A stretch of DNA of 64,000 nucleotides from IMG/VR virus record IMGVR_UViG_3300025870_000008, positions 16,843 to 80,842 of that record; one strand, written 5' to 3'. Positions 5,080-48,548 of this stretch are shown here, piece by piece. Position numbers and translations under genes: made by a program. Below the pieces are notes generated by a model. The model was given only the letters and a program-made list of their open reading frames with translations. It was not told where the DNA came from and did not search any database. The DNA comes from a virus. Every line of letters starts with the position of its first letter. The first letter of the stretch is position 1.

Positions 5080-5117
5080 GCTATTACTATCGTTTATTTT
5101 TTAATTAATTGCAAACT

Positions 5118-5279: not shown

Positions 5280-5280
5280 A

Positions 5281-27923: not shown

Positions 27924-29201
27924 ATGGCAACAGACAGAGTATTATATCAAAGTGAATCGTTATACGTCAGTAAACTAGAAGGAACAGGCCCTGTTAGCGG
28001 GAATGGCAAACTTATTGACTCAGACGACATAGAAGAAATTAACAGAGTGCAAGATATGAGTTACAATTTAGAAGTAACTCGTACCGATGTAAATGAATTT
28101 GGACAGCTAGCTGCATTATCTAGAGAAGTTACAGAGCCGCCCACGGTTTCTTTAGATTTTTCTTACTATTTAACAGATGGCACTCAAGAGGGGCAGTTAG
28201 GTTTTAACCGTAACGAGGCTGGGCAATTTACTCTGTCCAACGCCACACCAATGACTAAAGACTTATTGACTGGGGACGATAACAAGGACGAATTAAATTA
28301 CTACATTGTTACCGTGCCAGAAGGAGAAGATGTACATGGACAAAAATCAGCGTTACCTGGTGGGGGAGAAACAGTAGCAAAATCAACTAATGGGGTAATT
28401 GCAGTTGGCAATGGTTTTATGACGAGTTATGGAATTTCAGCCGCTGTTGGAGAATTAGCTACAGCAAGTGTCTCTGTAGAGGCATCTAACATTGTTTTCA
28501 AGAATGACCTCAGTGGCAAGTTTACAAACCCCTCCATTGACGTAGAGTCAGCTACAGGAGGTAGGCTAGACAATCAAGTTGATTTTGCAAGTGTGGGTTC
28601 TTCAGATGGAGATATTAAGGTTGACGGAAACGAAGTTTTTGCTATCAGGCCTGGAGATATTTCTATAGATTTTGACGCTAAAGGATATTTAGACTCCACC
28701 GAAGCAGGAAAACTACAGACTGGAGGAGCCATACTTCCAGGTGTGAATGACACAAGCTTAAAAACCTCTATTCACGTACAAAATATTTCCTTGGATATAC
28801 CAGTGTCTCGAAGCCCATTAAATAGACTTGGTAGTTTGTATCCATTTTCGAGAAAGGTTGATTTTCCTTTGAATATGACCTTGAGTGTTTCCGCATTGAT
28901 GACCGAGTTTTCAGACGGAAGTTTGGATGAATTGTTATGTGGTGAAGAAAAAGGTAGAGATATTGCAATCGTACTCAACACAAGATGTGGAGCAGCTAAC
29001 GCAATGGTATTCATTATGAGAAATGCTATTCTTGACACCCAGGCTTTTTCAGCATCTATTGGGGACAATAAAACTGTAGATCTTACTTTCTCCTCTCAAG
29101 TTGGAGGAGCTAACGATAGTGACAACGGAATTTTCTTAATTACAGAAGCTAAGAATAAAGTTGGCTCTAACGACGGAGCTCCTACAACTCCAACCCCTTA
29201 A
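27924..29201 (+). CDS. major tail tube protein
   Basis: Beta-rich 425 aa with two related halves (RTDVNEFG / RSPLNRLG); followed by a terminator; precedes chaperones and TMP. Confidence 0.75.
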   Translation: MATDRVLYQSESLYVSKLEGTGPVSGNGKLIDSDDIEEINRVQDMSYNLEVTRTDVNEFGQLAALSREVTEPPTVSLDFSYYLTDGTQEGQLGFNRNEAGQFTLSNATPMTKDLLTGDDNKDELNYYIVTVPEGEDVHGQKSALPGGGETVAKSTNGVIAVGNGFMTSYGISAAVGELATASVSVEASNIVFKNDLSGKFTNPSIDVESATGGRLDNQVDFASVGSSDGDIKVDGNEVFAIRPGDISIDFDAKGYLDSTEAGKLQTGGAILPGVNDTSLKTSIHVQNISLDIPVSRSPLNRLGSLYPFSRKVDFPLNMTLSVSALMTEFSDGSLDELLCGEEKGRDIAIVLNTRCGAANAMVFIMRNAILDTQAFSASIGDNKTVDLTFSSQVGGANDSDNGIFLITEAKNKVGSNDGAPTTPTP

Positions 29202-29589: not shown

Positions 29590-30312
29590 ATGGCTAAAAT
29601 TTGTTTTAAAAGTAAATCAATTTTTTTTCATGTTCCTAAAAATGCGGGAACATCACTGACTGTATTTTTCGGTCGGTGTGGGTGGAATACATTTCGGTAT
29701 TCTCCGATAGATGGACCTTCTGACACAATAAGTCCTGATTATAAATACTCGAAAGGTTGCTGTATTAGAGTTCGGGAAAACATGAAACAAATTGCAGCTC
29801 ATAATGATTTAGAGAGAGAGCAGGGTAAAACTATCCCATACTTTGTAAAAAATATGAATTCATCAGAACTTCAAATGGTAAAAAAAATCGACCATAATAC
29901 TTGGGGTGATTTTTATAAATTTGCTTTTGTAAGAAACCCTTGGGATAGATTAATTTCGGCTTGGAAAAATAGAGTAACAAGCATACCCACTTTTGAAAAG
30001 TTTCTTGACTGTTTACCATTTGATAAAAGATTAACAGATATTTATTGGCATACTATGCCCCAGTATGATCATTTGTACGACGAACAAGGAAAACGATTGG
30101 TGCAAGATATATTTAAGTATGAAGAACTTGATGTGTATATGGACCACATTAAGTTAAAATTAGCATTGCCAGATTTTTCTATTGATAAAAAATGGAATTC
30201 AAGCGGAGCAAGAAAGCGTTACTCAGAATATTATACTAAAACTGAACAAATTGAAAAAGTAGCAAAAATTTACGAAAAGGATATAAATCAATTTAATTAT
30301 AAATACAGGTAA
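29590..30312 (+). CDS. sulfotransferase (Sulfotransfer_2-like)
   Basis: 5'-PSB motif FFHVPKNAGTS, 3'-PB motif FVRNPWDRLISAW, H..PQ and C-terminal YEKD...F.Y. Confidence 0.88.
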   Translation: MAKICFKSKSIFFHVPKNAGTSLTVFFGRCGWNTFRYSPIDGPSDTISPDYKYSKGCCIRVRENMKQIAAHNDLEREQGKTIPYFVKNMNSSELQMVKKIDHNTWGDFYKFAFVRNPWDRLISAWKNRVTSIPTFEKFLDCLPFDKRLTDIYWHTMPQYDHLYDEQGKRLVQDIFKYEELDVYMDHIKLKLALPDFSIDKKWNSSGARKRYSEYYTKTEQIEKVAKIYEKDINQFNYKYR

Positions 30313-30318: not shown

Positions 30319-31179
30319 ATGAAAATAAATGAAAAAAATATACTCTACTCGTTCTCTTTAAACTTAAATAAAGAAGTTGAAGAAGAAGTAGAAAAGAAAA
30401 CTAAACGAAAAAATAAAGAAACTGGAAAAATGGAAGTGGTAACTTCTATCGAGAAGGTTAAAGTGGATAAGGAAATTCCTTATAGAATGGTAATCAAGAA
30501 GCCAAATAGAACGGAACTTGAAGAAGGGGATATGTTTTATAGTTTGGAGCTGAATAAGTTTATTAAAATGGGATTGCTTACGAAAGCGATGCTAGCTAAA
30601 CAATACGGAAATCAAGGAGGAATATGGTCTGAAAAGGAGCAAAAGATATATGCTGAATTATTATACAAAATGCATCAAAAGCAGTTAGAAGTTCAACAGT
30701 TTTCCATACTTGGAGAAAATAATAGTTTATCTAATAGACAAAAAGAAAAATTAAACGAGTCAATAAGAGATTTATCTTTCTTGAAAAGAGAGTTAACTGA
30801 ATACGAAATGCTTCAAAACTCTTTGTTTGATCATACTGCGGATGTAAAAGCCAGAAACCGAGCTATAATGTGGTATGTTTTAAATTTAAGTTACTTCCAA
30901 GAAGGCGAAGGCAAGGATAGGCCTTTTGAAAAAATGTTTGATGGGGATAATTTTGAATCAAAATATGAATCCTATCAAGACAAGGAAGACTCAGAAAACG
31001 AATTGTACCAAAAGAGTATTGATAAAATTTCATCTATAGTTACAATATGGTATGTTAGTGGAAACCAAGATGCTGAAAGTATAGAGGCGATATTTGAAGA
31101 AATGAAAAACAACCTCAAGGAAGACGAATCTTCAGAGGAAAATTTAGAAGAGAATTTGGAAGAAGAAGCAAGTGGATAA
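30319..31179 (+). CDS. putative tail assembly chaperone
   Basis: Helical acidic protein between tail tube and TMP. Confidence 0.55.
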   Translation: MKINEKNILYSFSLNLNKEVEEEVEKKTKRKNKETGKMEVVTSIEKVKVDKEIPYRMVIKKPNRTELEEGDMFYSLELNKFIKMGLLTKAMLAKQYGNQGGIWSEKEQKIYAELLYKMHQKQLEVQQFSILGENNSLSNRQKEKLNESIRDLSFLKRELTEYEMLQNSLFDHTADVKARNRAIMWYVLNLSYFQEGEGKDRPFEKMFDGDNFESKYESYQDKEDSENELYQKSIDKISSIVTIWYVSGNQDAESIEAIFEEMKNNLKEDESSEENLEENLEEEASG

Positions 31180-32161
31180 TAGAGAAGCATCTTTGTTGTT
31201 TCAAGAAATATGCGAAGGCTTCTCTGTTTCAAAAATAAATTCGAAAAAAATTTATGTAAAACATTTAACATTAAAAGAATTTAATATTGTTAACAGTATT
31301 TATGAAGATTATTATTCTAATGCTATAAAAAAAAACATTCCTAATAGTAAAGATTTGTTTGAAAGCTTAAAGGAAACAGGTCAATGGACAGAAAAAGACG
31401 AAGAGAATTTATCTAACCAAGAGTTGGAGATAAAAAATCTAAAGCAGACTTTAAAAAAAGTATTCAGAGGGTTTGAAAAAGAGTCTATATCAAAAAGATT
31501 AAAAGAACTTGAACCTGAATTTAAAGAATCTTTAAAGTTAAAGAAATCTTTTTTACGCGTTACGGCTGAACACTACGCTGAAAAAAAAAGCAACGAAGAG
31601 GTGTTAAGACTGTGCACATTTAAAGATGCAAAATTAGAAGAAAAATTATGGACAGAAGAAGAGTTTCAAGATTTAGATTATTTTGAATTAAATAGTTTTT
31701 TTAATTTGTACTCGCAAGCTATAGAAAAGTTTTCGGACAAAAATATAATGCAAACTTCTCTTTTTAGTTCTTTTAAAAATTTAACATCCATTTTTGATAA
31801 AGATTTGTCTAGTTTTTTTAATAAACCAGTATTGCAACTAAGTTTTTACCAAACTAATTTACTGAATTACTCTAAAATGTTTCAGGCTATTTTTGAGAAT
31901 AGAGAAATCCCTAAAGATATACAAGGAGATGCGGAAAAAATCATTAATTTCATAGAGGAAGCGGATGCCAAAAAAGATAAAGCCGAAAAGATAATTAAAA
32001 AATCTCAAGAATCAGATGGGTTTTCATTTGCAAAATTGTCAAACGAAGAGATGAAGGAACTTGGTGTTGAAAAACCTAAAGGTAAAGATATTCACAAGTT
32101 AGCCCAAGAAAAAGGGGGGGAGTTAACCATGGAGGACTTCATGAAAATGCATAAAAAATAG
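31172..32161 (+). CDS. putative tail assembly chaperone 2
   Basis: Immediately upstream of TMP; GTG start overlapping the previous gene. Confidence 0.55.
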   Translation: MDNREASLLFQEICEGFSVSKINSKKIYVKHLTLKEFNIVNSIYEDYYSNAIKKNIPNSKDLFESLKETGQWTEKDEENLSNQELEIKNLKQTLKKVFRGFEKESISKRLKELEPEFKESLKLKKSFLRVTAEHYAEKKSNEEVLRLCTFKDAKLEEKLWTEEEFQDLDYFELNSFFNLYSQAIEKFSDKNIMQTSLFSSFKNLTSIFDKDLSSFFNKPVLQLSFYQTNLLNYSKMFQAIFENREIPKDIQGDAEKIINFIEEADAKKDKAEKIIKKSQESDGFSFAKLSNEEMKELGVEKPKGKDIHKLAQEKGGELTMEDFMKMHKK

Positions 32162-32188: not shown

Positions 32189-35100
32189 ATGAGCGTCATA
32201 CAAATACCAACCAGTTCGACTGGGTTTAAAGAAAGCATTGTTAGAGATGCTAGAGCGGCTCAAGCTGCTGTAAATAGGATGCAAATGACACCTCAGTTGA
32301 ACCCTAAAGGAATGGTTCAACCATTAGGTAAAATAACAAATGCTGCAAGCGAGTTTCAGAAATCAATGGATGCATCTGCAGCTCGTGTTTTTGCTTTCGG
32401 AGCGGCTGTTGGAGTAATTAATGGAATATCTGATGCTTTCAAGGGTATGGTGTTGGCTACCGCTCAAGTTGAAAAATCCCTAAAGGATATTCAAGTTGTA
32501 ATGGAAGTTTCTGACCAAGCAATGAGAAAGTTTGGAGACGGATTGTTTGATGTAGCTAGAAACACAGCAACATCTTTAAAAGATGTTGCGGAGTCGGCCA
32601 CAGAATTAGCTAGGCAAGGTTTAAGTGCTGAAGAAACTTTAGCAAGGGTAAACTCAGCGTTAGTGTTAAGTAGGTTGTCGGGATTAGACGCCGTAAAGTC
32701 AACAGAAACTTTAACAGCAGCAATAAACTCGTTTAACAAAGAGGGTATCACTCACGAGCAAATTGTTAATAGAATGGCAAATGTTGATGCTGCTTTTGCT
32801 GTGTCATCAGCTGATTTAGCTGAGGCAATATCTAGAGCAGGAGCCGTTGCTCAGTCATCTGGGGTTTCATTTAATGAATTGTCAGCGGTAATAACCGCTG
32901 TTCAACAAAGAACAGCTAGAGGAGGATCCGTAATAGGAAATGGATTCAAGAGTATATTTACTAGGATTAAAAGGAGCGGTGTTAGAGAATCTTTAGAAGA
33001 AATTGGGGTAGCAACAAAAAATTTAGACGGGTCTTTTCGTAGTGGAATGGATGTAATATTAGATTATGCAGATGTATACAAGACTTTGTCAGATAGTCAG
33101 AAAGCTTATACATCTGAGCAATTAGCGGGAGTTTACCAAATTCAAAATCTACAAGCATTGTTGCAAGATTTAAACAGTGGGTTCTCTATATATAATAAAG
33201 CTCTTGGAGTTGCGAATAATACAACAAATGAGGCCGTGCAAAGAAACGAACAATTAAATACAACTTTAGACGCTTTATTTAAACAAACGACTTTAAGCTC
33301 TCAAGAGCTAGCAGCCTCAATTGGGGACTTAGCCCTATCTGGAAACTTTAAAGAAATTCTAAAATTCCTAGACAGTTTAGCTCAAAAACTAAATTCTCTT
33401 TTTTCAGACGAAGGAGGGTCTGATATAGCTAAAAATCTCATCAGGGGCATTGGTAGCTTTTTAACTGGGCCAGGAATGGTTATTTTAGGAGCTGCTTTTA
33501 TAAAAATATTCGGGCTAGTAACAAAGTTCGCAAAAGAAGCCTTTGCGGATATACTAGGGTTAAATTCGGAAACTAAAAGACAACAATCTTTACAAGCCGC
33601 AATTGGGCAAATATTAAGTTCAAACGCTGGGATCTATCAAAAAATACTTGCGGCGGGAAGTAATACAGCGAAACAAGAGCAGATAATTTTAAACATTATA
33701 AAACAAGAAACAGCGGAACGTTTAAAACAAGAAGCTTTAATTAAGAGAATTTCGGCTGGATCAAGGCTAGCGGGGATTGGAGCTTCTGATGCTGGTTTTG
33801 TGCCTATGGGAAAAAGACCCTCTAGGAATCAAGGGAAGCGAGCACTAGGAATGGCTAGCGGTTTCTTGCCAGCTTTCGCTAGAGAATCCAGAGATATATA
33901 CAAGGGAGTAGGGGGAGCTAGGAAAACCGACTCGCCAGTTTCAACAAAAATAAAAACGACCCCTGGGAAGACCGAAGATGTTGTGGTAAATACTGGAGAA
34001 TGGATAGTTAGAAACTATGAAGGGTCGGGGGCTGATGCTGTTTTTAATCGAAATATGGCAAAAGCATATGGGTTGCCAAATGGCTCTCAAAAAGTAAATG
34101 CAGCCTCTGGAATAATACCAAACTTTTCAAAAGGGGGATTTGGGTCTGGTAAAACAATTAGCTATACCGCCAGACAACTTGGGGGGAGTGGCAATATGGG
34201 TGCAATATCAAAAATAAGTAAATACGCAGACTTAAGCGATAAGTTTACTGGAAAAGTAAAAATAGAAAGAATGCCGCAAAATAATTCGTATTTTGAAAAA
34301 AAGGCGGCCTTACTAAAAGATAAATTAATTCAGAGAGACTCAGGTCAAAAAGATGGAAGAGTAAAATATGCGGTCAATCAAGATTATAAAAAATTTTTAG
34401 AGCGAAGGTATAAAGGTTTGATAGACAACGGGGTTTACCGAGGAATTTTTACAAGTGCGGAAAATATAGCTAAACAGCCAGCGTATTCTGGTAAGCAGCC
34501 AGCGAAAACGAGGAACCTGTTTGCAAGTTTAGTGGCTAAATCAAAAGGGCTAGTCGGAGAAAGTAAGGGTAGGTTCTATTTAGCTGGTAAACCTGGTAGT
34601 CAGAAAGCGTCATACATAAAAGGAAACGATCCTTTTGATATAACTGTTGAGTCTATGACATCAAAGGGTCAAAGAAGATTTAAAAAATACGAGCAAAAAA
34701 CTAAAAACGAACAAAATATTACCGCAGTCCTTAAAAAGGGAGCTTCGTCGTTTTTAGATAATTTAATAAATCGTCAACAAAAGTCTGGACGTCAAGCGAT
34801 TGGGATAAAAGATGGTAATTTTCAGAATATTAACTTAACCCAAGGTTCGGCAGCTATGTTTAGAGGTGGGCTAAACATGCTAGTACCAAAAGATACAAAA
34901 ATTAAGAATTCTCCATTAAAAAAAGACAAAGGATACACCATTCAAAAAAATCAAGACCCTGGGCAAGGGCAATTTGGTTTCTTGAATGCTTCGAGTGGTT
35001 ATGTTCCTAATTTTGTTGACCGCAGAAATAAATATCAAAAAATAAAAGATGTTTTAGCTGACCCAGCTAATAAAAATATTAAATTTAATTCGCCAACTTT

Positions 35101-38100
35101 TAAAAAATTAAGCATTGAAACGGTTAAAAAAGGCATGGGTGGAGAATTTCAGAAGATGTGGTTGGAAAACTATTTCAAAAAAGGTCTATCGGGGGATTAT
35201 AAAATGCTAATGAGAATGGGTTATGATCAAGACCAGCTTTTAAAACTAAGGAAGCATTACACAAGAGGTGGAAAAATAAATATAAAAACTTTGTCCAAAG
35301 GTTTTATTCCAAACTTTGGTAAGACATTGGCAACAAGTCGTGGTGCTATAACCGCCCAGCAAATAAATAGATTAAAAGAGGGAAAGCTTATTAATAATAA
35401 AAAAACTGGAGAAAAACTTTATTTAAATCAATTTACTCCAGATGAGCAAACCGCAATTAAAACGTTTAAAGCTGCTAATAGTAAAGAAGCAATAGCTCAA
35501 AAAGAACAACGAGCAAAAAAGGCAAAAAATCAATTGAAAACGATTGACGCTTCAAGGCAAGCAACAATGCTTGTTGCTACAAAAAATTTCAGACAAAAAG
35601 TAGATACAACAACTCAGTCTGGAGAAAATAAAGTCCGACTAAAATATAGAGTAGAAGGAATCAAGGGTCAGAAAATAGGCGATCAAGAAACTGCATTAAG
35701 GAATAAAGCTGAAAAGTTTATGTTGAACCAAGCTCATTTAACCGCAATGAAAATGGCTGGAACTGGACAATTTGCGGCAAACACACCTATGCCTACTAAG
35801 GTTGCGAATGCTGGCAGTATAGGCTCTGCAGCTGGATCAATTTTTGAAACAGCTGTGCAATCAATTGGTAAGAACTCACTGTTTACTAAAAATAATGCAA
35901 CATTTGACATTCAGGGATTTCCAGATAATTCATTAAAGAATTTATTTGGATATTATAGTCCTTTTGCGGACGCAAAAATCGGACTAACCCCAGGAACTAA
36001 AGCTGATTTTAATAAAAAACTGCTAAGTTTACCAGAGATTAAACAGAAAATCACAGGAAAACAAAGGAGAGAGCAGGGAGGAGTGGCTTTAAAATCTAGG
36101 AAGAATTTATCGAAAGGGTACATACCTAACTTTTCAAAATTTGCAGACTTCAGAGGTACGAGCGGACTAGTGGGAGGTACGGCTTTAGCTGGTTTGTTTG
36201 CCGCAAACACCTATGAAGGAATGGGGGACGACCCTGGAACAGCAGCGTTAATGTCCTCGCTTATGTTTGGGGCGGGATCTTTTGGAGGTATTAAATCTGG
36301 AGATAAATTAAAAAGCATGTACGAAAATGATTATAAAAGATACAGCTCAACAATAGGCAATGTAACATATGATTTTTATAAAAAAGATCATTTAGAATAC
36401 AATAAATTATCAAAAGATGTTAATCAGAGAATTAGAGCGGCAAACGAAAACTTGATATCTGTTTTATCTGGAAGAACAGAAGGGGGAAATCTAGATGTAT
36501 CAAATATAGAAAAAGAAATACAAGAGCTTAAAAAAGAAAAACAGGCTATAGATAAGAAATATATTAAAAAAAGCGCTGGAGTTAAATCCGCTAGATTTAA
36601 CCCAAGAATGATGTCGTTAATGAAAAAAAATGGAAGTAGGGGAAGACGTGGAAATATGTCTAAGGGTTATTTGCCAAACTATTCAAGTAAACCTTGGATG
36701 AGCAGCAAGCAGTTTGCGAGATTCAGCGGAAGTGTCGGTGGTTTTAACAAGCATGTAGTTCAATCAAAAGTGGGGTCTATAACAAGCTCACCATTGAGAT
36801 CTCCTGGTAGAGATAAATTGTTTTCATTTTCTAGAAGAAGACAAAAAGAATCACTAGGAAATATAAAACAATATATAAACTCAGATTTTTTTAGATCTTT
36901 AGACCCAGATATACAATCAAGAGTTGTGAAGTTTTACAACAAAAGAATGTCTAGTTTTAAGACAAATCAGCAGCCTGAATACTTAAAGGACAATGCTAGA
37001 TCTAATGCTAGAACAATGAACTTTGGAAGGGGGTATGTACCAAATTATGCAAACCCTTTAATGGATGCTCTATCTAGGGAAAAAGGAGCTTTAAGCGCTA
37101 GAGGTATTTCTTCTAGTGCTATTAGGGTAGAGCAGAGCTCTAAACTAAAAAGCTCGATGAATCCAGAAGGTTTGGCTGTCACAAATAAAATAGATGAACC
37201 CTTGGGTGTTGACCAAGGCATATCAAGAGCGAAGAGAATAGGGGTAGACCCTAAAACTCATGGGGTGACACCAAATTTCGCCGTTTTCCCCGCGCTTATC
37301 CCGCTTTTAAAGCCGTTGGTAAGCGGTTTAAGTACTGCAGTTATGCTTGGAGTTGGGCCGCTACTAAAAGCTCTTAAAGGTACAGGTAAATTTGTTAAAA
37401 ACCAAGGATCAAAAACTATAGGGGGGATGGGCGAAATGGGTGCAATGGAAATGGGTTTAATGTTTGGGGGTCCGATGATGGCGGAAATGTTGAAGAATGG
37501 TAGGGGTGAAGGACAATTGCCTGGATCTACAGGTGTAGCAACAGATACTCTAGAATATGCATCAATGGGAGCCTTACTGGGCAAACGAGGAATGATTGCG
37601 GGTGCTGCTGGTGGTGCATTAGCAGGACTATCAAGAATGTCAGAAAGAGATCTTCAAGTAGAAGCATTTGAAAAAATAATAAAACAAAAAGAAAAATTAG
37701 ATAAATCATTGCAAAATTCTCAAGCTATTCAAAATTATGCAACTGGAGTAGTTGGGTTAAACGAAGCTTTGAAAAAAGGAGATTTCGAGGGAGTTGCCAA
37801 GGCTCAAAATATGATTTATGAGGCTATGAGTAATGCAAGTGATCCAGAATTAATAAAGAAGTTTGGGGATTTACAAAATTCGTCAAAAACTGCTGAAGAA
37901 AAATTACAAGCTCTAAGTAAAGAAATGGATAATCTAGGAAAAAGAGCGAACAACTTAAAGGGTCTAATCGGAATTACTGAAGATTTGCCAACACAAAAAA
38001 GTTCTGGAGATGATTTAAGCCTAGGGGATAGAGCTCAGGAAGTCGCAACTCAGGTTGGAGCTAGGCTTTGGTCCGCGACTAAAGATGTAGTTGATTTAGA

Positions 38101-40585
38101 ATTTGGTGGTATATTTGATAGAGCAAATAAAGCGGGAAATGAGGTCGCGGCGAGTAATACCGATAGGGACGCTTTCGTCGGAGAGGGTGGGGAAGAGAAG
38201 CGCACAAGTATTACAAATAAATTATTAGATTCCTTAAAAAATAGAATTAAAACAGAAGAAGGAGAAAGAACCGCATCTAGATTGAGTGGAAAGAATACCA
38301 CCAGTAAATTAACAAGCGATTTAGGCACTACAGAAAAGCTTAGAAATTTGCTACTCAAAAGAGTTGAAAATGAGTCGAAAGGAGTTAGCGACCCAGATTC
38401 CTTAAAGAGAGAAATAAGGAACATGCAAGATTCAGATTTTGAATTTGGTGCTATTGGGGATAAAATTAAAGATATCGCAGATTGGGATATAGATGTTACT
38501 GATAAAGTAAATTTATTAAACCAAGAAATTAAACATTTAAGTGACACGATAAAGGTTACAAGCGGATTAATTGGAAAGTCTCAAAAAGAGATTAAAGATG
38601 GGATGAGCACGGACATGGCAGTTAAAGCAGCTTCAGAAGTTGTAAAAAACTTAAATATAGCCGAAGAGACCAGAAAAGAGATTGAACATCTAACAAGTGG
38701 AAAAATTTCAGATCCGACAGCAGAATTTAAAAACCAAGAAGATGTAAGATCGATTCAAAGATCTAAGACTATAAAAGAGTTAGGTAAAGAAGACAAAAAA
38801 AGTGCGAACAATTTAATGAACGAACTAGCTAACTCAAAAACATTACGAGCGCTCTTCAAAAAACGAGGTGGAGAAGAATCTGATAGAGCTAATACGCTTG
38901 CTCAAACTTCACTTTCATCTGTAGGTCAACAATCAGAGCTTGAAAAAAAATCTAATAATGCATACGAAAAAGTAAAGTCTCAATTTGAACAAATGAAGAG
39001 TTCTCAAAGGCTTTTCGATGAAATGCAAGCTAACTATAAACAAGGGTCTTCGTTAAGAGATTTTGAAAACGATACAAGAAATCAAGCGAAAGTAAGCGCG
39101 AACGATTTTATGACTTCAAGAGGTTATCTTTCTGAGCGTAAATATGTAGATAGATCAAGTAAAATTCAAAAAGATTCAGTACTTCAAAACCAATCGAACA
39201 AACTAAACGATCAGCTATTAAATTTGGCATCTTCATTTACAAATATGTCATCATTGTTTGACCCCTCAAACTCACAAAGAACAGAGTTAGGGCTAGGGAA
39301 GGAACCTGGTAGAAAAGGTCTTGGTAAATTTGAAGACGAAGAGCAAAAAAGACTCAAAGGTGAAAGCCAGGAAATAGCAGTAATTATGCGGCAATTTGCT
39401 CAAGATAATCAAGATGGGAATATAACTTTATCAGAAACCAAAGGGGTAATTGAAAAATTAAAAATGATCGGAGAAAAAGGAAACTTGATAGCTCAAACAT
39501 CCTATAATCTAGAAAAAGCAAATGGAAGAGAAACGATAGCTCAATTAAATAGAATTGCGTTGGAATCTTTAGTGGCTCAGGCTAGAGCAGCTAGCAGTAG
39601 ATTAGAACGTCAAGGCGGCGAAATACTTGGACCACAAGCTCGAAAAGCGAACACTGAATTCAGTATGAAAGGAACTAAGAATATGCCAGAGATGGAAGCG
39701 ACTGCTAGGTCTATAACATGGGATGTAAGAAATAATCAACGTCCATCTATGAATAATGATGTATTTGATAATAAAGACCCTGGTGCAGAAACTACAGGGT
39801 CGATGGGGGCAGAGGCTATTAATGCATTTAGAAAATTAGCGGCTACACTTGGCGTGAACGAAACAATGTTCACAGGGATGAATGAAGATATGGCTAATTA
39901 TATAATATCCTTAGAAAATGCAAATAATTGGTTTAGTGACTTGCAGAAATTTGACCCAGAGTCAGCTGAAAAATTAAGACCAATATTTGAAAAACTAAAA
40001 CAAAATTTAGATGAAGATTTGAAAACCACACAAAATTTTGCTGCAAATTTAAAAGAAATAGCTGATAAAACAGGTAATATAAACCCTGAAGACTTGAAAG
40101 ACCCAATGGACAAATTAGGTCAAACGATATCAAATAAATTAGACGCTGGTATTAATATAGTGAATATGGAGGCCAATATAACAACCCCTTTGACCTCAAT
40201 AAAAGAAGCGATAATAACTCAAACAGAAGAGATTATTAAACTGCAAGAAGGAAAGAGTAAAGGTGATGAAGGTGGTGAAGGTGGTGAAGGTGGTGAAGGG
40301 GTAGATTTTAAAGCGCTAGCCGCATCAGTAACTACTTTTTCTGAATCCATAAATCAATTATCGGATTTCCCAAAAACATTAGTGGACACATTAAGTGGGT
40401 TGGCAATCAAACACGAGGTGACTGGTGGTATAAAATTTGATTTTAATTCTGATGTGGTAAGAGGGCAGTTAACTCCAGTAATGATGGAAACATTAAAAAA
40501 TCTACTTCAAGATGGAGTAATTTTAGATTACTTGGCAAACGCCTTAGCCCCAAGAATACAATTAAGAACTCAAGTCGAACCTTAA
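32189..40585 (+). CDS. tail tape measure protein with inserted domains
   Basis: 2798 aa; N-terminal TP901-type TMP core (ELARQG...LAEAISRAG..A...G..GNGFKSIFTR); central part segmented by GxxPNF motifs. Confidence 0.9.
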   Translation: MSVIQIPTSSTGFKESIVRDARAAQAAVNRMQMTPQLNPKGMVQPLGKITNAASEFQKSMDASAARVFAFGAAVGVINGISDAFKGMVLATAQVEKSLKDIQVVMEVSDQAMRKFGDGLFDVARNTATSLKDVAESATELARQGLSAEETLARVNSALVLSRLSGLDAVKSTETLTAAINSFNKEGITHEQIVNRMANVDAAFAVSSADLAEAISRAGAVAQSSGVSFNELSAVITAVQQRTARGGSVIGNGFKSIFTRIKRSGVRESLEEIGVATKNLDGSFRSGMDVILDYADVYKTLSDSQKAYTSEQLAGVYQIQNLQALLQDLNSGFSIYNKALGVANNTTNEAVQRNEQLNTTLDALFKQTTLSSQELAASIGDLALSGNFKEILKFLDSLAQKLNSLFSDEGGSDIAKNLIRGIGSFLTGPGMVILGAAFIKIFGLVTKFAKEAFADILGLNSETKRQQSLQAAIGQILSSNAGIYQKILAAGSNTAKQEQIILNIIKQETAERLKQEALIKRISAGSRLAGIGASDAGFVPMGKRPSRNQGKRALGMASGFLPAFARESRDIYKGVGGARKTDSPVSTKIKTTPGKTEDVVVNTGEWIVRNYEGSGADAVFNRNMAKAYGLPNGSQKVNAASGIIPNFSKGGFGSGKTISYTARQLGGSGNMGAISKISKYADLSDKFTGKVKIERMPQNNSYFEKKAALLKDKLIQRDSGQKDGRVKYAVNQDYKKFLERRYKGLIDNGVYRGIFTSAENIAKQPAYSGKQPAKTRNLFASLVAKSKGLVGESKGRFYLAGKPGSQKASYIKGNDPFDITVESMTSKGQRRFKKYEQKTKNEQNITAVLKKGASSFLDNLINRQQKSGRQAIGIKDGNFQNINLTQGSAAMFRGGLNMLVPKDTKIKNSPLKKDKGYTIQKNQDPGQGQFGFLNASSGYVPNFVDRRNKYQKIKDVLADPANKNIKFNSPTFKKLSIETVKKGMGGEFQKMWLENYFKKGLSGDYKMLMRMGYDQDQLLKLRKHYTRGGKINIKTLSKGFIPNFGKTLATSRGAITAQQINRLKEGKLINNKKTGEKLYLNQFTPDEQTAIKTFKAANSKEAIAQKEQRAKKAKNQLKTIDASRQATMLVATKNFRQKVDTTTQSGENKVRLKYRVEGIKGQKIGDQETALRNKAEKFMLNQAHLTAMKMAGTGQFAANTPMPTKVANAGSIGSAAGSIFETAVQSIGKNSLFTKNNATFDIQGFPDNSLKNLFGYYSPFADAKIGLTPGTKADFNKKLLSLPEIKQKITGKQRREQGGVALKSRKNLSKGYIPNFSKFADFRGTSGLVGGTALAGLFAANTYEGMGDDPGTAALMSSLMFGAGSFGGIKSGDKLKSMYENDYKRYSSTIGNVTYDFYKKDHLEYNKLSKDVNQRIRAANENLISVLSGRTEGGNLDVSNIEKEIQELKKEKQAIDKKYIKKSAGVKSARFNPRMMSLMKKNGSRGRRGNMSKGYLPNYSSKPWMSSKQFARFSGSVGGFNKHVVQSKVGSITSSPLRSPGRDKLFSFSRRRQKESLGNIKQYINSDFFRSLDPDIQSRVVKFYNKRMSSFKTNQQPEYLKDNARSNARTMNFGRGYVPNYANPLMDALSREKGALSARGISSSAIRVEQSSKLKSSMNPEGLAVTNKIDEPLGVDQGISRAKRIGVDPKTHGVTPNFAVFPALIPLLKPLVSGLSTAVMLGVGPLLKALKGTGKFVKNQGSKTIGGMGEMGAMEMGLMFGGPMMAEMLKNGRGEGQLPGSTGVATDTLEYASMGALLGKRGMIAGAAGGALAGLSRMSERDLQVEAFEKIIKQKEKLDKSLQNSQAIQNYATGVVGLNEALKKGDFEGVAKAQNMIYEAMSNASDPELIKKFGDLQNSSKTAEEKLQALSKEMDNLGKRANNLKGLIGITEDLPTQKSSGDDLSLGDRAQEVATQVGARLWSATKDVVDLEFGGIFDRANKAGNEVAASNTDRDAFVGEGGEEKRTSITNKLLDSLKNRIKTEEGERTASRLSGKNTTSKLTSDLGTTEKLRNLLLKRVENESKGVSDPDSLKREIRNMQDSDFEFGAIGDKIKDIADWDIDVTDKVNLLNQEIKHLSDTIKVTSGLIGKSQKEIKDGMSTDMAVKAASEVVKNLNIAEETRKEIEHLTSGKISDPTAEFKNQEDVRSIQRSKTIKELGKEDKKSANNLMNELANSKTLRALFKKRGGEESDRANTLAQTSLSSVGQQSELEKKSNNAYEKVKSQFEQMKSSQRLFDEMQANYKQGSSLRDFENDTRNQAKVSANDFMTSRGYLSERKYVDRSSKIQKDSVLQNQSNKLNDQLLNLASSFTNMSSLFDPSNSQRTELGLGKEPGRKGLGKFEDEEQKRLKGESQEIAVIMRQFAQDNQDGNITLSETKGVIEKLKMIGEKGNLIAQTSYNLEKANGRETIAQLNRIALESLVAQARAASSRLERQGGEILGPQARKANTEFSMKGTKNMPEMEATARSITWDVRNNQRPSMNNDVFDNKDPGAETTGSMGAEAINAFRKLAATLGVNETMFTGMNEDMANYIISLENANNWFSDLQKFDPESAEKLRPIFEKLKQNLDEDLKTTQNFAANLKEIADKTGNINPEDLKDPMDKLGQTISNKLDAGINIVNMEANITTPLTSIKEAIITQTEEIIKLQEGKSKGDEGGEGGEGGEGVDFKALAASVTTFSESINQLSDFPKTLVDTLSGLAIKHEVTGGIKFDFNSDVVRGQLTPVMMETLKNLLQDGVILDYLANALAPRIQLRTQVEP

Positions 40586-40597: not shown

Positions 40598-43500
40598 ATG
40601 AATTTTAATAATGTAAATATACTAGGAATATCATATCAAAAAATTGATTTCGATTCTAATTATGTATTTCAAAAAAAGAAAGCTATTACTTTAAGTGGAA
40701 ATTTTTTAGATTTAGGAAACGATAGTGGAGTAAAAAATATTATTGAAGCTTATAGCGATTTAATCGAAATTGAAAACGCCTTAAATTTAACAGACTCATC
40801 CATAACCCATAACCTTCAGGAAATTTTTATTAATAGTGTTTCTTATGGAGAAGGTACTGTAGAAAGCATTGCTATATCTGGGGAACACATACAAACAGCG
40901 GAGTTTCAAGCAAGTTTGATTTTTGTTGAAGAGGGAGATTTAAGTAAAATATTAATATCTAAAAATTCTTCTAGTAGTGAAAGTTTTAACTCGTCAGGTT
41001 TAACAAACGAGGATTTGAAATATTTAGATTCTTTTGATGAAAATTTTAGTTTTGGAATTTCTGGATCTCAACGATCCGTAGGTCATGAAATAAGCTGCTC
41101 GTTTAAAAAAAGAAAATCTTTAATACCTTATAGAAAAAACGTATGGAGCAACTCTTCAATACAAAACTCTAAGTTAAAAAATTTAAATAATAAAGGCAAG
41201 GGTTCCATTAAGGTTTTAAACGGAGAAACCGCTAGTCATCAAATTTTTCTGGAATCTGGGGATTACATATTGGAGCTAGAATACCTTGGGCAGGATTCAG
41301 ACGTATGGGGCCAAGCAAGTGTGCAATGCGAAAGTAAGACAGAAAATTTACCAGATATATACTCTCATAGAGAAATACAATTTAATGTAGATGTAGACAA
41401 GAATGTAAATATAAATTTAATCGCGAATACTACTAGCGATACTTTTTTTGATAATATTAAACTATTCAAAAAAAGCGAAATGCCTTTAGAAAAGGCGAGG
41501 CAATTTGTAAATTTTATTTTCTCAGAATCTCCAGAATACCCAATAATAAGTGATCAATTTGGAGAAAACTATTCAGATGTAAGTTTATACGAAAGGTTAA
41601 ATTCAGAGGAGTCGTTTGATAGTATAAATAACTCGTACTCTGTTGCTAAAAGCCTGCAGTATAACGAAACAGACTCTACAAAACAATACTCAAGGAGACT
41701 TTCTTCTTCTATTAATTTTGAAGGCAATGGTGTTGCTACTATTAAGGAATCTATAGAAATTAAAATCTTAAAAGAGAAAACCGACACAAAATTAAAAAAT
41801 TTTTTACAGCTAGAATTATCTGGTTCCAGGGCAAGAGGTCAAGCTTTACTCGATGAATACGGGCAGTTAAATGTGGTAACATGCCCAACTCCAACAATCA
41901 CTGAGTTAATAGAAGGTCTGTTTGGTTTTTCGGAATCTTTGAGCGTACAATACGATTTTGATTCAGGTTTAGCAAGTGCAGAAATTTCTTATTCTAATAA
42001 TCAAGAAAATGAAATCTACTCAGGCTCAGCATTTAAGGTTACACAATCTAGGATGATTGAGTTTAATGGAGGGTTTGAGATTGTTAGGTTGTCTGGTAAT
42101 ATTGTTGGTAAAGGCGACGATATTATAACTAGAAATAACCACGCTAAGAAAGGATTACAGTTTATTGTAGAGGGCACCAACTCGACACTGAGAGAGATAG
42201 AAGGTAGATATAAATTAGACTATTATTCAACCCCAACGAAAACTTCCACGGAAATACAAACCAAGTTGTTGGAGACAAATAAAACTCTATCATTTGATGA
42301 CGTAAGTGGGGTCATATCTTATTCTTACTCTTTTAGTAATGAGAGGGGTGTTGTTGATTTACCTGAAGACCAAAAAGACAGAGTAAAAAAATATGAAATT
42401 AAAATAAGTCATCAAAATAGAATTAATTTATTTAACGAGTTTTCAATAAATTGCTTGAGGATAGCTCAGGTTATGGGAGACTTGTTTTCTCCAAAAGTTA
42501 CAACGGTAGAAATATTAGTAAATGGTAGGGCTGGCACCACGTTACAAATGCTAAAACAAAGCGCTGTAAGTATATTGGGGCACAAGAATTTGTTGTTTGG
42601 AGAAATATCAAAAGGCGTAAAAGATGATGTTATAAATAGTAATGAAAATAAATTTTTAGTAGACGAAAGTTATTCTTATGACCCGACAGAAAATAGATTA
42701 AGTTACAGCAGATCGATATTAGATGTATCAGATTGCCCAACTTCAAACATAGGTGATGGATACCCGTGGACATACGAAGCAGATTTCGAAGAACCGACGG
42801 AGCCAACCAGAACCAGCTTTGAATATCAGCCTATAGAATATAATTTTAAAGAAACTCCGAGTGAAAGCGGGTTTGTGTTAGATCCAGATGACTACGAAAT
42901 AGAATATCCAGAACCAACTTTGACGGATTTCTACTCTGAAGAAGTGCCACCGCCTACATTTTTAACATCTCCAGCTGTTACTCGAACTAGTTTCCCTGAA
43001 ACCACGCAAACACCAACAATCAGCGAAAGTCCAGAAGCTAACGATTCAGAAGATAGGTTGGTTGAAGTTTTTGTGCCAGAAGATTGGAATAAGACTATTA
43101 GTGAACTAGTTCCAGGGGGCACAATAATATCAGGAAGAAGATGTTTTGACGAAAGCGGAGGGCCGAATAATTTAATTCAAAATATTATTTCCACCTCTTA
43201 TGCTTTTTCAACGGTAGTTAGAGATTGCATAAGAGGTGGAAGTGGTCAACCTTGGTACAGTTTTACATTTTCTATACCAAGAGATCAAGGTTTCACTCCG
43301 CCGTACAGTGATAACTGTCAGTTTTTTAATGTGACAGTTCCAGATTTTTATGATGAAAATTTAAACTGTTTATTAAAGGAGAATGGTGTTTGTATAGGAG
43401 ATAGTAGTAACTTAATTGGATATCACATCGCTCCTGGAACTTTTATATATAGTGATTTATATACTAGTGAAACATTTATTATAGCCGCTCAAACATATAA

Positions 43501-44227
43501 TAATAACCACCCTTATTTTAATAAAGGGGAGGTTGTTAATGGAGAGGTAAGTTTTCAAATATGTAAAGATGATAAAAGTGGAATAGTTAAAACCGAACAG
43601 GTTATACAAACAGTTTCGATACCATTTAACTCTGGTAAGACAGTAGTTCAAGAAATTATAGATGGAGTACAGGGTTGGCAGGCGGGTAAGTGTTACGAAA
43701 TGATAGGTTTAAAAGATTGCAGTTCAGGAGTGAGATTTAATTTAAACGACAGAAGGTACTATAAGGGAGATGTTTTAGATAGATGCGGAGAGTTATCTTT
43801 TAATGATTTAGTTACAGATGTTTATGTTAGAGAATTTTCATGCTCTTCAACAGTGTTAGATGAAAGTGTAATATATGATTACGAATCTCCAGTTACACCA
43901 ACGAGCACAGTCACTGAAACAGCTACGGTTACACCAACAGTCACTATAACTACAACAGCAACCCCAACAGTTACAATAACCACAACGATTACAGAAACAG
44001 AAACAATAGATTGTAGTGGTTGCTTTGCTTATTATGATTCTGATTGGGAAGATTATAGTAATACCAATTGCTTTGATGGAGTTCCAACTTGTTCAGACCC
44101 ATGTGCGTGTTCAGTTGTGTTAAATGATAATGGTAACCCAGACGGATTTTTTGGGGGTGGAACAGGGCCTACTTTATCATGTTGTGACGACGAGGTGAGA
44201 GGAGATAATGATTGCAACACATGTTAG
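40598..44227 (+). CDS. tail-tip/baseplate-region protein with Thr-rich and Cys-rich C-terminus
   Basis: Follows TMP; beta-rich; Thr repeat at about 43885-44005. Confidence 0.65.
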   Translation: MNFNNVNILGISYQKIDFDSNYVFQKKKAITLSGNFLDLGNDSGVKNIIEAYSDLIEIENALNLTDSSITHNLQEIFINSVSYGEGTVESIAISGEHIQTAEFQASLIFVEEGDLSKILISKNSSSSESFNSSGLTNEDLKYLDSFDENFSFGISGSQRSVGHEISCSFKKRKSLIPYRKNVWSNSSIQNSKLKNLNNKGKGSIKVLNGETASHQIFLESGDYILELEYLGQDSDVWGQASVQCESKTENLPDIYSHREIQFNVDVDKNVNINLIANTTSDTFFDNIKLFKKSEMPLEKARQFVNFIFSESPEYPIISDQFGENYSDVSLYERLNSEESFDSINNSYSVAKSLQYNETDSTKQYSRRLSSSINFEGNGVATIKESIEIKILKEKTDTKLKNFLQLELSGSRARGQALLDEYGQLNVVTCPTPTITELIEGLFGFSESLSVQYDFDSGLASAEISYSNNQENEIYSGSAFKVTQSRMIEFNGGFEIVRLSGNIVGKGDDIITRNNHAKKGLQFIVEGTNSTLREIEGRYKLDYYSTPTKTSTEIQTKLLETNKTLSFDDVSGVISYSYSFSNERGVVDLPEDQKDRVKKYEIKISHQNRINLFNEFSINCLRIAQVMGDLFSPKVTTVEILVNGRAGTTLQMLKQSAVSILGHKNLLFGEISKGVKDDVINSNENKFLVDESYSYDPTENRLSYSRSILDVSDCPTSNIGDGYPWTYEADFEEPTEPTRTSFEYQPIEYNFKETPSESGFVLDPDDYEIEYPEPTLTDFYSEEVPPPTFLTSPAVTRTSFPETTQTPTISESPEANDSEDRLVEVFVPEDWNKTISELVPGGTIISGRRCFDESGGPNNLIQNIISTSYAFSTVVRDCIRGGSGQPWYSFTFSIPRDQGFTPPYSDNCQFFNVTVPDFYDENLNCLLKENGVCIGDSSNLIGYHIAPGTFIYSDLYTSETFIIAAQTYNNNHPYFNKGEVVNGEVSFQICKDDKSGIVKTEQVIQTVSIPFNSGKTVVQEIIDGVQGWQAGKCYEMIGLKDCSSGVRFNLNDRRYYKGDVLDRCGELSFNDLVTDVYVREFSCSSTVLDESVIYDYESPVTPTSTVTETATVTPTVTITTTATPTVTITTTITETETIDCSGCFAYYDSDWEDYSNTNCFDGVPTCSDPCACSVVLNDNGNPDGFFGGGTGPTLSCCDDEVRGDNDCNTC

Positions 44228-44236
44228 AATAAAAAA

Positions 44237-45898
44237 ATGAGTGCCGTTAAAATAGAATATAATAATACTGATGTATTTACCCAGCAAAACATTGGCTCCC
44301 CTAATGTTTCTAGAAGTACCCAACCTATTATAATGGGAGATATCAAGGGTGTAAAGGAGGTTGTTGACCTAGAAGGTATTATACATGTAGAGGGGGATAT
44401 TGCTGGTTGTGATTATTTGGGAGTTTTAAAAGATAAGCAACAGGCAATAATTAATGGGTTCTCCGAGGATTACAAAAAACTAACAATAAAAGAAGATGGT
44501 TTAGATATATTAGAAAGAGATTTTTGCAAAGTATTAAACATTGATTTTCCAGATCAGAATTATAATAAAATTTTATATTATAAAATAACTTTAGAGTGCT
44601 ACGACGAGCTACTTCATAATGAATTTTACGGAATATCATCCCCTGTATACAATACAACTATTGTAAAAAACGAAGATGAGACATATTCTATAACTAGAAG
44701 TATATCAGCTAAGGGAGAGAACACACAAGACGGAAACGCTGAGGGGAAAAACTCTAACTCGTTAAGTAATTCGTTGGATAATGCCATTAGCTTTGTTAAT
44801 TCAATAAAAATTAAAAATGTAATTATACCAGAAGGTCTAGATGATTCAAATTTAATATTGATAGAAAGTTCTGAACAAATTGATAGGTTTAAAAATAATT
44901 TTTCAATAAATGAAACGTATATAATAGATTCAAAAAATAGAGCAAATCAAGATGCGATATATAGGTATACAATGTCTAGAAATAAAAGTTTTGGAGGGAT
45001 ATCTAGGGTAGATTTTTCAGGAACAATAAAGTATGGAAAAAATTCGAACATAACAAATGTAAGAAATATAATAAATAAACAAGAGGCTTTCGAGAAAATA
45101 AAAGAAGCATTTGGCGAGTCAAATTATAATAGCCACCCGAAGGCAATGGTTATAAATGAAGACCAAAATGAAAGGGCGATTTCTTTTACATTTAATTTTG
45201 ATAACGATGATTCTTATGACGAATGTGGGGTGGGGGAAATAATAAAAACATCTATAGAGGAGGGTGAGAATAGTATAGTTACAGTTTCTGTAGAAGGGAC
45301 AATAACTAAACTTGGACACTCGACTCAAAAATGGGAAGATGTTGAAAGCTATTTCTTGAATAAAGATTATGATAATTCAAGTTATAGTAGCTGGATACAA
45401 GAAATTGCACAAGAAAAAGTTAATAATATTTTTATTGGAATAACATTAGCATCAGAACCAGACACAAAAAATATAACAGAAAATAAAAAAGAGGGGGAGA
45501 TTTCTTTTAACTATGTTTTTACAAATAAAGAAAAAGAAGATTTTAAAAATTTAAAGAAAAATGTTTCAATAAAAGATAGAGCTCCAAAATATGAAATTGG
45601 AATGAATTATGGAGGAACAATGGATGGGTATATAGTTACCAGGTCTGGGTTCCAAAAGGGGGTTGTTTCAGTGTCATTAGAGGGGGAGTATGTAAAATCG
45701 TCAAACAATGAAGAGTTGGATAGGTCTAACGCTCTTAACGCGCTAGGAAGCGAAGCTGATTCAATTTTCACAGAGGTAGAGGGTCTGTTTTTTGGGGGAC
45801 TAAGCGTTATAACAACCGAAAATTCAGAAAGATATAATATACATAATAATGTTACATCTATATCAATCACCAGAGAATATTTTGATGATATTGTGTAA
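44237..45898 (+). CDS. tail-tip protein, paralogous in style to the upstream gene
   Basis: Repeated V.V.G.I...G and ISF.Y.F.N modules shared with 40598-44227. Confidence 0.6.
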   Translation: MSAVKIEYNNTDVFTQQNIGSPNVSRSTQPIIMGDIKGVKEVVDLEGIIHVEGDIAGCDYLGVLKDKQQAIINGFSEDYKKLTIKEDGLDILERDFCKVLNIDFPDQNYNKILYYKITLECYDELLHNEFYGISSPVYNTTIVKNEDETYSITRSISAKGENTQDGNAEGKNSNSLSNSLDNAISFVNSIKIKNVIIPEGLDDSNLILIESSEQIDRFKNNFSINETYIIDSKNRANQDAIYRYTMSRNKSFGGISRVDFSGTIKYGKNSNITNVRNIINKQEAFEKIKEAFGESNYNSHPKAMVINEDQNERAISFTFNFDNDDSYDECGVGEIIKTSIEEGENSIVTVSVEGTITKLGHSTQKWEDVESYFLNKDYDNSSYSSWIQEIAQEKVNNIFIGITLASEPDTKNITENKKEGEISFNYVFTNKEKEDFKNLKKNVSIKDRAPKYEIGMNYGGTMDGYIVTRSGFQKGVVSVSLEGEYVKSSNNEELDRSNALNALGSEADSIFTEVEGLFFGGLSVITTENSERYNIHNNVTSISITREYFDDIV

Positions 45899-45916
45899 TA
45901 TTGTATAATATAAAGT

Positions 45917-48268: not shown

Positions 48269-48522
48269 CAATAAATATATCTGCATCACCAGCAAAATTT
48301 TACAAAACAAGCGAAGGGGGAGTTGAAATAAATATGTCGTCTGCGGGCGCTGTAATAAATATGGAGCTTGATACTGCGGGTGTAGTAAGTCAGGAATTTA
48401 TTGATGCTCGACCCGAAAAACCAACATTAAAATTAAGAAGTGTAGAGTGGTGCGACCCTGAAGATGGAACATTATATCACGGTGTAATTCTAGCCACGGA
48501 GTTCTGGAAAGCAACTGGGTAA
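48265..48522 (+). CDS. small tail-associated protein
   Basis: 85 aa with ATGA overlap. Confidence 0.6.
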   Translation: MTINISASPAKFYKTSEGGVEINMSSAGAVINMELDTAGVVSQEFIDARPEKPTLKLRSVEWCDPEDGTLYHGVILATEFWKATG

Positions 48523-48548
48523 TCTTATTAATATTTAGTTAAATTTTA

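Follow-up and report, generated by a model that had tools for sequence, protein, structure and literature searches.

Phage tape measure proteins (TMPs) are usually treated as passive rulers, sometimes with a cell-wall enzyme. The stretch of DNA analysed here, 64,000 nucleotides at positions 16,843 to 80,842 of IMG/VR virus record IMGVR_UViG_3300025870_000008 (the window), encodes a 2,798-residue TMP in which one short peptide recurs between folded, basic segments, and it raises the question of what such a peptide does and what the segments between its copies are for. A preliminary description of the window had proposed that this TMP is a candidate effector polyprotein, its peptide a cleavage or module-junction signal, and its segments a swappable set of nuclease or anti-host domains delivered at infection. 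We find that the peptide recurs throughout a large family of related TMPs and, in the 80 related loci analysed, is confined to them, and that relatives, as judged by sequence comparison, carry different sets and orders of modules bounded by it. On balance we favour a reading in which the peptide would be a handling signal read by a common partner and the modules would be cargo.

One peptide recurs through the basic region of the TMP

The TMP gene is the longest gene of the tail module and follows the tube and chaperone-position genes (roles assigned from position only); because the virus record, at 80,842 bp, is rated complete, the gene can be said to take up about a tenth (~10%) of the genome. 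Pfam and PHROGs, run on the whole protein, match only its N-terminal core: PF10145 (PhageMin_Tail) scores 108.7 bits, vs. a cut-off of 33.2, over residues 123-314 (32555-33130), PHROG TMP families match residues ~17-470 only (best E = 5.7e-48), and no other Pfam family matches at E <= 1. Similarity to GenBank phages is limited to residues 11-447, at <30% identity, with Bacillus phage Staley and phages of the SPbeta group as the best matches. By its sequence the protein is a TP901-family TMP (PF10145). Its main parts are:

32189-40585, plus strand: TMP gene, 2,798 aa (open reading frame (ORF) list and translation)
32189-33859, plus strand: region A, residues 1-557, TP901-type TMP core (PF10145, PHROG TMP families)
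33446-33535, plus strand: first hydrophobic, transmembrane-like stretch, residues 420-449 (hydrophobicity windows)
37265-37375, plus strand: second hydrophobic, transmembrane-like stretch, residues 1693-1729, beginning within motif copy 8 (Kyte-Doolittle windows >1.4)
37280-40585, plus strand: region D, residues 1698-2798, a Gly/Met-rich hydrophobic part and then an acidic C-terminal part, with 0 motif copies

The two hydrophobic stretches flank a basic module region (residues 558-1697, ~1,140 aa) with a net charge of ~+110 and with module isoelectric points (pI) of 9.6-10.9; the C-terminal ~970 aa (residues 1831-2798) have a pI of 5.3 and a net charge of -16. Within the protein lie seven strict copies of the motif G..PN[FY] and one degenerate copy. 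The ORF translation confirms all eight copies listed in the preliminary description, together with their motif-to-motif spacings of 83, 296, 101, 272, 183, 122, and 77 aa:

33860-33877, plus strand: motif copy 1, degenerate, GFLPAF, residues 558-563, preceded by MAS
34109-34126, plus strand: motif copy 2, GIIPNF, residue 641, preceded by AAS
34997-35014, plus strand: motif copy 3, GYVPNF, residue 937, preceded by ASS
35300-35317, plus strand: motif copy 4, GFIPNF, residue 1038, preceded by LSK
36116-36133, plus strand: motif copy 5, GYIPNF, residue 1310, preceded by LSK
36665-36682, plus strand: motif copy 6, GYLPNY, residue 1493, preceded by MSK
37031-37048, plus strand: motif copy 7, GYVPNY, residue 1615, preceded by FGR
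37262-37279, plus strand: motif copy 8, GVTPNF, residue 1692, preceded by KTH

Chance does not account for this number: 2,000 shuffles of the protein gave a mean of 0.02 strict copies and a maximum of 1, vs. the 7 observed. A six-frame scan of the whole window for G[FYIVLT][FYIVLT]PN[FY] found no match outside the TMP ORF. Pairs of the seven strict copies have 8-14 of 18 bases in common and use different synonymous codons, so the repeat is kept as a peptide, and a DNA-level repeat is ruled out on the same counts.

The peptide is a family-wide feature confined to the TMP

A search for relatives with residues 540-1720 as query yielded 52 TMPs of 1,542-4,493 aa, all metagenomic. Every one of the 52 carries strict motif copies (2-13 each), and the spacing between copies is irregular, from 17 to >1,000 aa. 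A scan of IMG/VR gave at least 600 matching stretches, at least 562 of them encoding a relative, from which 80 loci were kept for analysis. TMP ORFs with 2-12 motif copies are present in 79 of the 80 loci, the exception being a 631-aa fragment, and the other stop-to-stop ORFs of these loci (~597,000 aa) hold only three, chance-like, matches. We conclude that, in related loci, the motif is confined to the TMP.

A logo built from 273 unique copies defines the full motif as the ten residues [AF][AS]xG[FY][IV]PN[FY][AS], with a core conserved from -3 to +6, flanks that are unconserved and mostly basic, and, after the motif, a small residue (A in 49% of copies, S in 16%). An N-glycosylation sequon, PN[FY][ST], was considered and dropped, A being commoner than S at the position two residues past the Asn. 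Single copies vary at the Asn itself, with 28 copies reading SF and 14 reading AF, vs. 653 reading NF. Copy 1 is kept in the near clade as GFLP[AS]F, without Asn: across 30 TMPs G558 never varies, and the conservation of P561 is 90% or higher. In some distant relatives a complete PN[FY] copy is found around residues 545-546.

The setting of the motif is likewise a family trait. Among 175 TMPs the motif region is net positive, with a median of +5 per 100 aa, and 170 of the 175 have a hydrophobic stretch no more than 260 aa upstream of the first motif; a stretch no more than 80 aa after module C (described below), at the same threshold, is present in 73. Cys is missing from 166 of the 175. Metagenome-assembled genome bins that contain relatives are labelled Flavobacteriales, Cellvibrionales, Neomarinimicrobiota, and others, the binning of phage contigs being no proof of host.

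Relatives differ by modules bounded by the peptide

Cut at the motif, the TMP of the window gives seven modules:

33878-34126, plus strand: module L, residues 564-646, small beta-rich domain closing with motif copy 2; predicted local distance difference test (pLDDT) score 84-95 in AF2
34127-35014, plus strand: module E, residues 647-942, alpha/beta, with an Hjc-like PD-(D/E)xK signature, closing with motif copy 3
35015-35317, plus strand: module F, residues 943-1043, small helical domain homologous to G, closing with motif copy 4
35318-36133, plus strand: module B, residues 1044-1315, family-core alpha/beta domain closing with motif copy 5
36134-36682, plus strand: module H, residues 1316-1498, ~60 aa of Gly-rich disordered sequence, a beta-hairpin, a long helical hairpin, and motif copy 6
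36683-37048, plus strand: module G, residues 1499-1620, helical, related to F and H, closing with motif copy 7
37049-37279, plus strand: module C, residues 1621-1697, small alpha/beta domain closing with motif copy 8, AF2 pLDDT 87-92; the last module ahead of the second hydrophobic stretch

When 53 TMPs were cut at the motif and the pieces clustered, the pieces fell into discrete families whose members align over their full length from one motif copy to the next and have varying neighbours. In its minimal form the protein has A (~635 aa), B (~270), C (55-77), and then a long C-terminal region; E, F, H, and G are found in the larger TMPs, in various combinations with further families, among them I, J, K, M, and N. 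Modules L and C are present in 105 and 121 of 133 TMPs, respectively. Of 238 TMPs that have two or more motifs, 206 contain module C, compared with 0 of the 16 that have one or none; since the TMPs are mutually related, this count is not independent evidence. Profile comparison by hhalign relates G both to F (98.1% over 80 columns) and to the C-terminal part of H (97.2% over 55 columns), and all module pairs beyond F/G/H match through the motif only, so that the seven modules form at least five unrelated groups within one phage ORF.

One relative, P0005, differs from the window protein by an additional 75-aa module, which carries its own motif copy. These comparisons of sequence indicate that relatives carry different module sets and orders bounded by the motif. 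The earlier proposal of a swappable set of segments joined at the motif accordingly stands for these sets and orders and for the P0005 module, but not for relative P0015, in which an indel lies inside module G. Thirteen long TMPs that bear module B and have no strict motif were tried as negative controls and rejected: they carry degenerate forms of the motif at the same places, and are therefore not true negatives.

Structure prediction places the motif between folded blocks. The AF2 model of residues 540-1720 (68-row alignment; mean pLDDT 73.4) has confident blocks corresponding to L, E (~90-97), F, B, the second half of H (the hairpin and two long helices), G, and C, and all eight motif copies fall in stretches with pLDDT <50 between blocks at 80-97. 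A model of B with both flanking motifs (mean pLDDT 80.5) gives a globular alpha/beta domain, again with both motifs <50. Between the motif and the first helix or strand of the module after it there are usually 3-8 residues, and in both models every copy is predicted to be free of contacts and without order. In the models, then, every motif copy is a low-confidence linker between confidently folded modules. Because the blocks are confidently folded, the segments are not extended ruler helices; charge, hhalign, and AF2 together bear out the earlier statement that the motif divides unrelated, basic, non-coiled-coil segments. The N-terminal ~60 aa of module H (36134-36320, residues 1316-1377) are Gly-rich, mildly hydrophobic, and predicted to be disordered, and may be a third membrane-active stretch, lying within the putative cargo region.

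Module E resembles a nuclease, and module B carries similar residues

Two segments had been described as PD-(D/E)xK-like on the strength of the strings KGLVGE...DPFDI...YEQK, in what is here module E, and GSIFE...TFDI...ADAK, in module B. Both strings are present, and the order E...D...(D/E)xK is invariant in both module families (16 sequences of E, 22 of B); for B, the domain assignment found no fold match. The residues in question are:

34559-34561 (E791), 34637-34639 (D817), 34691-34693 (E835), and 34697-34699 (K837): module E signature residues
35846-35848 (E1220), 35906-35908 (D1240), 35975-35977 (K1263), and 36017-36019 (K1277): module B invariants

In module E, D681, D684, G787, E791, D817, E835, K837, K850, and L856 are invariant across the 16 sequences (26-81% identity). 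AF2 predicts, with pLDDT ~90-97, a helix at 772-800, strands at 804-809, 818-823, 829-836, and 841-843, and a helix at 844-865, placing E791 in the first helix, D817 just before strand 818-823, and E835/K837 in strand 829-836. The predicted topology thus contains a canonical alpha-beta-beta-beta-alpha core, the order described for Hjc-type nucleases in the available text of PMC8805305. The best match of the module E profile among PDB sequences is 1gef_A, the archaeal-type Holliday-junction resolvase Hjc of P. furiosus, at only E = 0.15, and the alignment is in catalytic register: GE/FD/ExK of module E falls on AE/VD/EVK, and the same text (PMC8805305) names E-VD-EVK as the catalytic signature of this enzyme. 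Order and spacing of E / xD / ExK on the predicted core are as in Hjc; module E differs from it in being 296 aa long, with ~125 extra N-terminal and ~80 extra C-terminal residues, and in being embedded in a TMP.

A Foldseek search with the large model gave HamA as the top match (E = 0.089) and nothing at E <= 0.001. Of 47 rows from the top 50, 14 are nucleases that we take to have the restriction-endonuclease fold: HamA, HinP1I, Card1 (twice), EndoMS, SwaI, EcoO109I, VC1899, SPARDA, a Cas4-family protein, MspI, a splicing endonuclease, Dna2, and Cdn1. Pfam searches at E <= 10 with five E and five B modules returned chance-level rows only, the Pfam HamA model had no match in the window's own genome, and searches of the ESM Atlas with B and E returned scores of at most 0.80 and no named family. 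The nuclease fold formerly proposed for module E has in its favour the predicted topology and the in-register Hjc alignment, and has against it that the match reaches only E = 0.15. We consider it quite probable that module E has a restriction-endonuclease fold, and by sequence and model it looks like a DNA-cutting enzyme of the Hjc-like PD-(D/E)xK type.

For module B the assignment stops short of a fold. Its 22 sequences (18-99% identity) all share G1216, F1219, E1220, D1240, K1263, and K1277, and have either D or E at position 1261; the spacing, compared by eye only, mimics that of module E (G-x3-E, FD, (D/E)xK, and a K 13-14 residues on). The module B model found no fold match in Foldseek PDB, BFVD, or VIA-align wide, and the module B profile matched only lectins, at E > 1, among PDB sequences. 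The possibility that E and B are paralogues was not supported, hhalign finding no relation between them. The module B profile retrieved 344 cluster representatives among 1.84 billion; of the best 150 matches, 132 reach 1,000 aa or more, 7 measure 700-999 aa, and 11 fall below 700 aa. Since most matches are so long, module B is taken to be a TMP-specific domain; it is enzyme-like and carries PD-(D/E)xK-type residues in order.

What the peptide may do

The motif is peptide-level, confined to the TMP, located in disordered basic linkers, and irregularly spaced, and single copies of it can decay. We infer, further, a partner and its way of handling the modules, as well as entry of the modules into the host and their catalytic activity, which would fit together as follows. 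The TMP would be beads on a string: a TP901-type core, a hydrophobic stretch, seven folded basic modules, a second hydrophobic stretch, and an acidic end, with the terminal disordered linker of each module bearing one ten-residue peptide. The peptide would act as a short linear motif and would signal, at the protein level, handling by one common partner, and any module placed between two copies would be handled alike by that partner, which would explain why relatives differ by whole modules at the peptide. The partner would dock or chaperone, without obligatory cutting, holding or threading the modules during tail assembly and ejection. The cargo would include an Hjc-like PD-(D/E)xK nuclease-type domain (E) and a family-wide enzyme-like domain (B), and, because TMPs leave the tail before the DNA, the modules would arrive at the inner membrane or in the cytoplasm of the host during infection. 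Carriage of this kind has precedents: the TMPs of T5 and lambda are processed and fill the lumen of the tube (PMC10038345), and in contractile injection systems TMP-related proteins are, according to the abstract, effector carriers (PMC13277306). That the protein is a modular TMP, with the motif as a partner-read handling signal and the modules as cargo, strikes us as somewhat the better bet than its negation; that the partner's role is docking or chaperoning we put at slightly under an even chance. Docking is favoured over cutting by the conservation of copy 1 without Asn and by the lack of any protease signature in the TMP.

Several observations weigh against this picture. The motif partner is a postulate. 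The 286- and 329-aa proteins encoded directly upstream of the TMP, and the tail-tube candidate, also occur in one locus (L119) beside a TMP with no strict copies, so their co-occurrence with the motif is uninformative; the L119 TMP still carries degenerate motif forms, and this control does not discriminate. Of two indels aligned between close relatives, one, the loss of ~100 aa in P0015, lies inside module G and not at the motif. The low pLDDT of the linkers may partly reflect the thin alignment there. All nuclease matches are non-significant (Hjc E = 0.15; Foldseek E >= 0.089), the Foldseek rows carry no model range, so that the nuclease rows are not attributable to a particular module, and in both VIA-align runs with the large model (wide and pdb_via) matches to the helical hairpin of module H took up the whole list. 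Searches for free-standing relatives of E (124-518 aa), by single sequence or by profile, found none at the sensitivity used, and profile search found no free-standing relative of B able to name that module. Finally, three folded 30-kDa domains abreast would, from tail-tube dimensions, not fit the lumen of a siphovirus tube.

The strongest rival is that the motif is a cleavage site and the TMP a true polyprotein, in which a phage or host protease, or Asn self-cleavage at PN|F, would free injected enzymes after tail assembly or on ejection. The predicted location of the copies in disordered linkers, the small residue after the motif (A 49%, S 16%), and the presence of a conserved junction peptide between units, as in viral polyproteins with a cleavage-site code, are what this model would lead one to expect. 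The last copy immediately precedes a hydrophobic stretch, and a cut there would leave this stretch exposed at the N-terminus so created. There are precedents: in the available text of PMC10038345 the TMPs of T5 and lambda fill the tube lumen and are processed, T5 by a cut after R1127 that separates an enzymatic domain which stays in the tail, and phage polyvalent proteins are thought to be processed into units (PMC5512222, in the part available). However, a search for an embedded protease found no HExxH, no Cys, and only 9 His in the 2,798 residues, and no His among the invariant columns of the module E and module B alignments. Copy 1 is conserved without the Asn, and single copies vary from N to S or A. 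A ruler must, moreover, stay in one piece during tail polymerisation. No cultured phage in the GenBank collection searched carries module L, E, B, or C (at E <= 0.01). We regard cleavage at the motif as unlikely, while still the most serious competitor of the handling signal.

A bolder form of the cargo idea is that the peptide is a universal cassette code, under which any domain between two copies would be loaded into the tail, threaded out before the DNA, and cut free at the peptide on the cytoplasmic side of the host membrane. Uncultured aquatic phages would in this way deliver, ahead of all expression of their own genes, a changeable set of nucleases, an Hjc-like one among them, and other enzymes directed at host DNA or host defences. 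We think it rather doubtful that this bolder reading holds as a whole.

The motif might instead need no partner. A Gly/Pro/Asn turn with two aromatics could be a structural joint that packs or registers the modules, or the three TMP chains, with module exchange at the motif only a by-product of shared sequence. G, P, and N are typical of turns, the flanks of the motif are unconserved, and the motif usually stands just ahead (by 3-8 residues) of the first helix or strand of the following module, all as a joint would have it. Against this, AF2 predicts every copy, in both models, to be without contacts and without order, the spacing runs irregularly from 17 to >1,000 aa, and ten conserved positions in TMPs that are ~25% identical elsewhere are more than a hinge usually needs. 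A joint is accordingly an improbable account of the motif, and so is exchange as its by-product. The notion that the repeat matters only as DNA, being a hotspot where recombination shuffles the modules, would fit relatives that differ by modules at the motif, but is contradicted by the 8-14 of 18 shared bases, the different synonymous codons, and a peptide near-invariant in 273 copies, and hardly merits credence.

Comparison with known systems

Enzymes embedded in TMPs are already known (T5 pb2, TM4, SPbeta YomI), as are injected multidomain proteins (polyvalent proteins, Sle1-type effectors). T5 pb2, in the available text of PMC10038345 (Linares et al. 2023), resembles the present protein in being a tube-filling TMP with a hydrophobic stretch followed by an enzymatic domain; it is proteolytically processed, with the enzymatic piece staying in the tail. 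It differs in having one cut, after R1127, and one metallopeptidase cell-wall domain; the TMP of the window has eight junction-peptide copies, seven modules, and nuclease-type, not cell-wall-type, residues, and cutting is hypothetical here. The TMP of mycobacteriophage TM4 (Piuri and Hatfull 2006, PMC1796659, as far as its available text goes) likewise embeds a functional non-ruler element that acts at infection, but the element is a small peptidoglycan-hydrolase or cell-wall motif, and no shared junction peptide or module exchange is apparent in that text. TP901-1/SPbeta-type TMPs, among which SPbeta YomI is annotated as a transglycosylase-bearing TMP, are homologous over the N-terminal 450 residues and differ in that modules L, E, B, and C are missing from GenBank phages at the threshold given above.

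Polyvalent proteins (Iyer et al. 2017, PMC5512222, in its available part) resemble the TMP in combining many unrelated domains, for which entry into the host with the DNA and separation into units are predicted. They are described there as polypeptides with two to 15 unrelated domains, a range into which the seven modules fall, and with a characteristic domain repertoire and processing peptidase, which the TMP does not share; they are mostly packaged in heads or delivered by conjugation, and a zincin-like peptidase is embedded in ~36% of them. The present protein lacks a peptidase, is built on a TMP chassis, and has one fixed peptide at its junctions. Since it has no repertoire domain and no HExxH, and since "tape measure" has 0 occurrences in the available text of that paper, we do not file this TMP as a polyvalent protein; the likeness is operational. 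Sle1-type effectors (Nagakubo et al. 2026, PMC13277306, abstract) share a TMP-derived carrier, exchangeable domains, loading into the tube, and translocation to membranes. They differ in belonging to an actinobacterial contractile nanomachine and in having one C-terminal functional domain and a partner, Sle2, and the abstract reports no repeated junction peptide.

Genes around the TMP and other features

Two ORFs, 30319-31179 (286 aa) and 31172-32161 (329 aa), lie directly upstream of the TMP gene, overlap by 8 bases in different frames, and are conserved in 76 and 79 of the 80 related loci, respectively. By position the pair could be tail assembly chaperones, perhaps joined by frameshifting; against that label, both proteins greatly exceed the usual size and match nothing in Pfam or PHROGs. 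The upstream tail genes are kept in 73-79 of the 80 loci; the genes downstream of the TMP (40598-50093, the tail-tip position) are found in 10, 8, 3, and 0 of 80. Poor conservation of tail-tip genes is the usual pattern for host-range genes. A sulfotransferase-like gene (29590-30312; PHROG 3347, E = 2.5e-14) stands between the tube candidate and the chaperone-position genes, and, because it is present in only 2 of 80 related loci, appears to be a recent insert in the tail module. In L119, positions 3235-5829 hold two tandem paralogues of the 425-aa tail-tube candidate, with 32% and 31% identity to window 27924-29201. Farther upstream in the window lies a gmd gene (19008-20060; PF16363, E = 3.4e-99).

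Within region D, Met/Gly-rich low-complexity tracts follow the second hydrophobic stretch (37500-37700, residues ~1770-1840), and a distant relative, P0158, has a much longer M/G run at residues ~880-910. A short acidic GDEGGEGGEGGEG repeat lies near the TMP C-terminus (~40240-40280, residues ~2685-2697).

Implications

What is new here is the fixed junction peptide, the scale of module variation at that peptide, and the putative nuclease-type cargo; a search of the literature for the motif, for nuclease-bearing TMPs, and for polyprotein TMPs found none. In a survey of phage protein mosaicism, TMP mosaicism was suspected and no recent case confirmed (PMC10684548). In the present family the junctions are defined to the residue, and the modules are fenced by one conserved peptide. 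The family is large, comprising at least 562 IMG/VR loci and 344 clusters at 50% identity, and a third or more of the TMP is given to folded, basic, enzyme-like modules. If the modules are delivered, they would represent a new route for pre-made phage enzymes into the cell, and, if module E is what it appears to be, the first nuclease-type TMP cargo in the literature searched. The peptide itself would then be a handle for loading foreign domains into phage tails.

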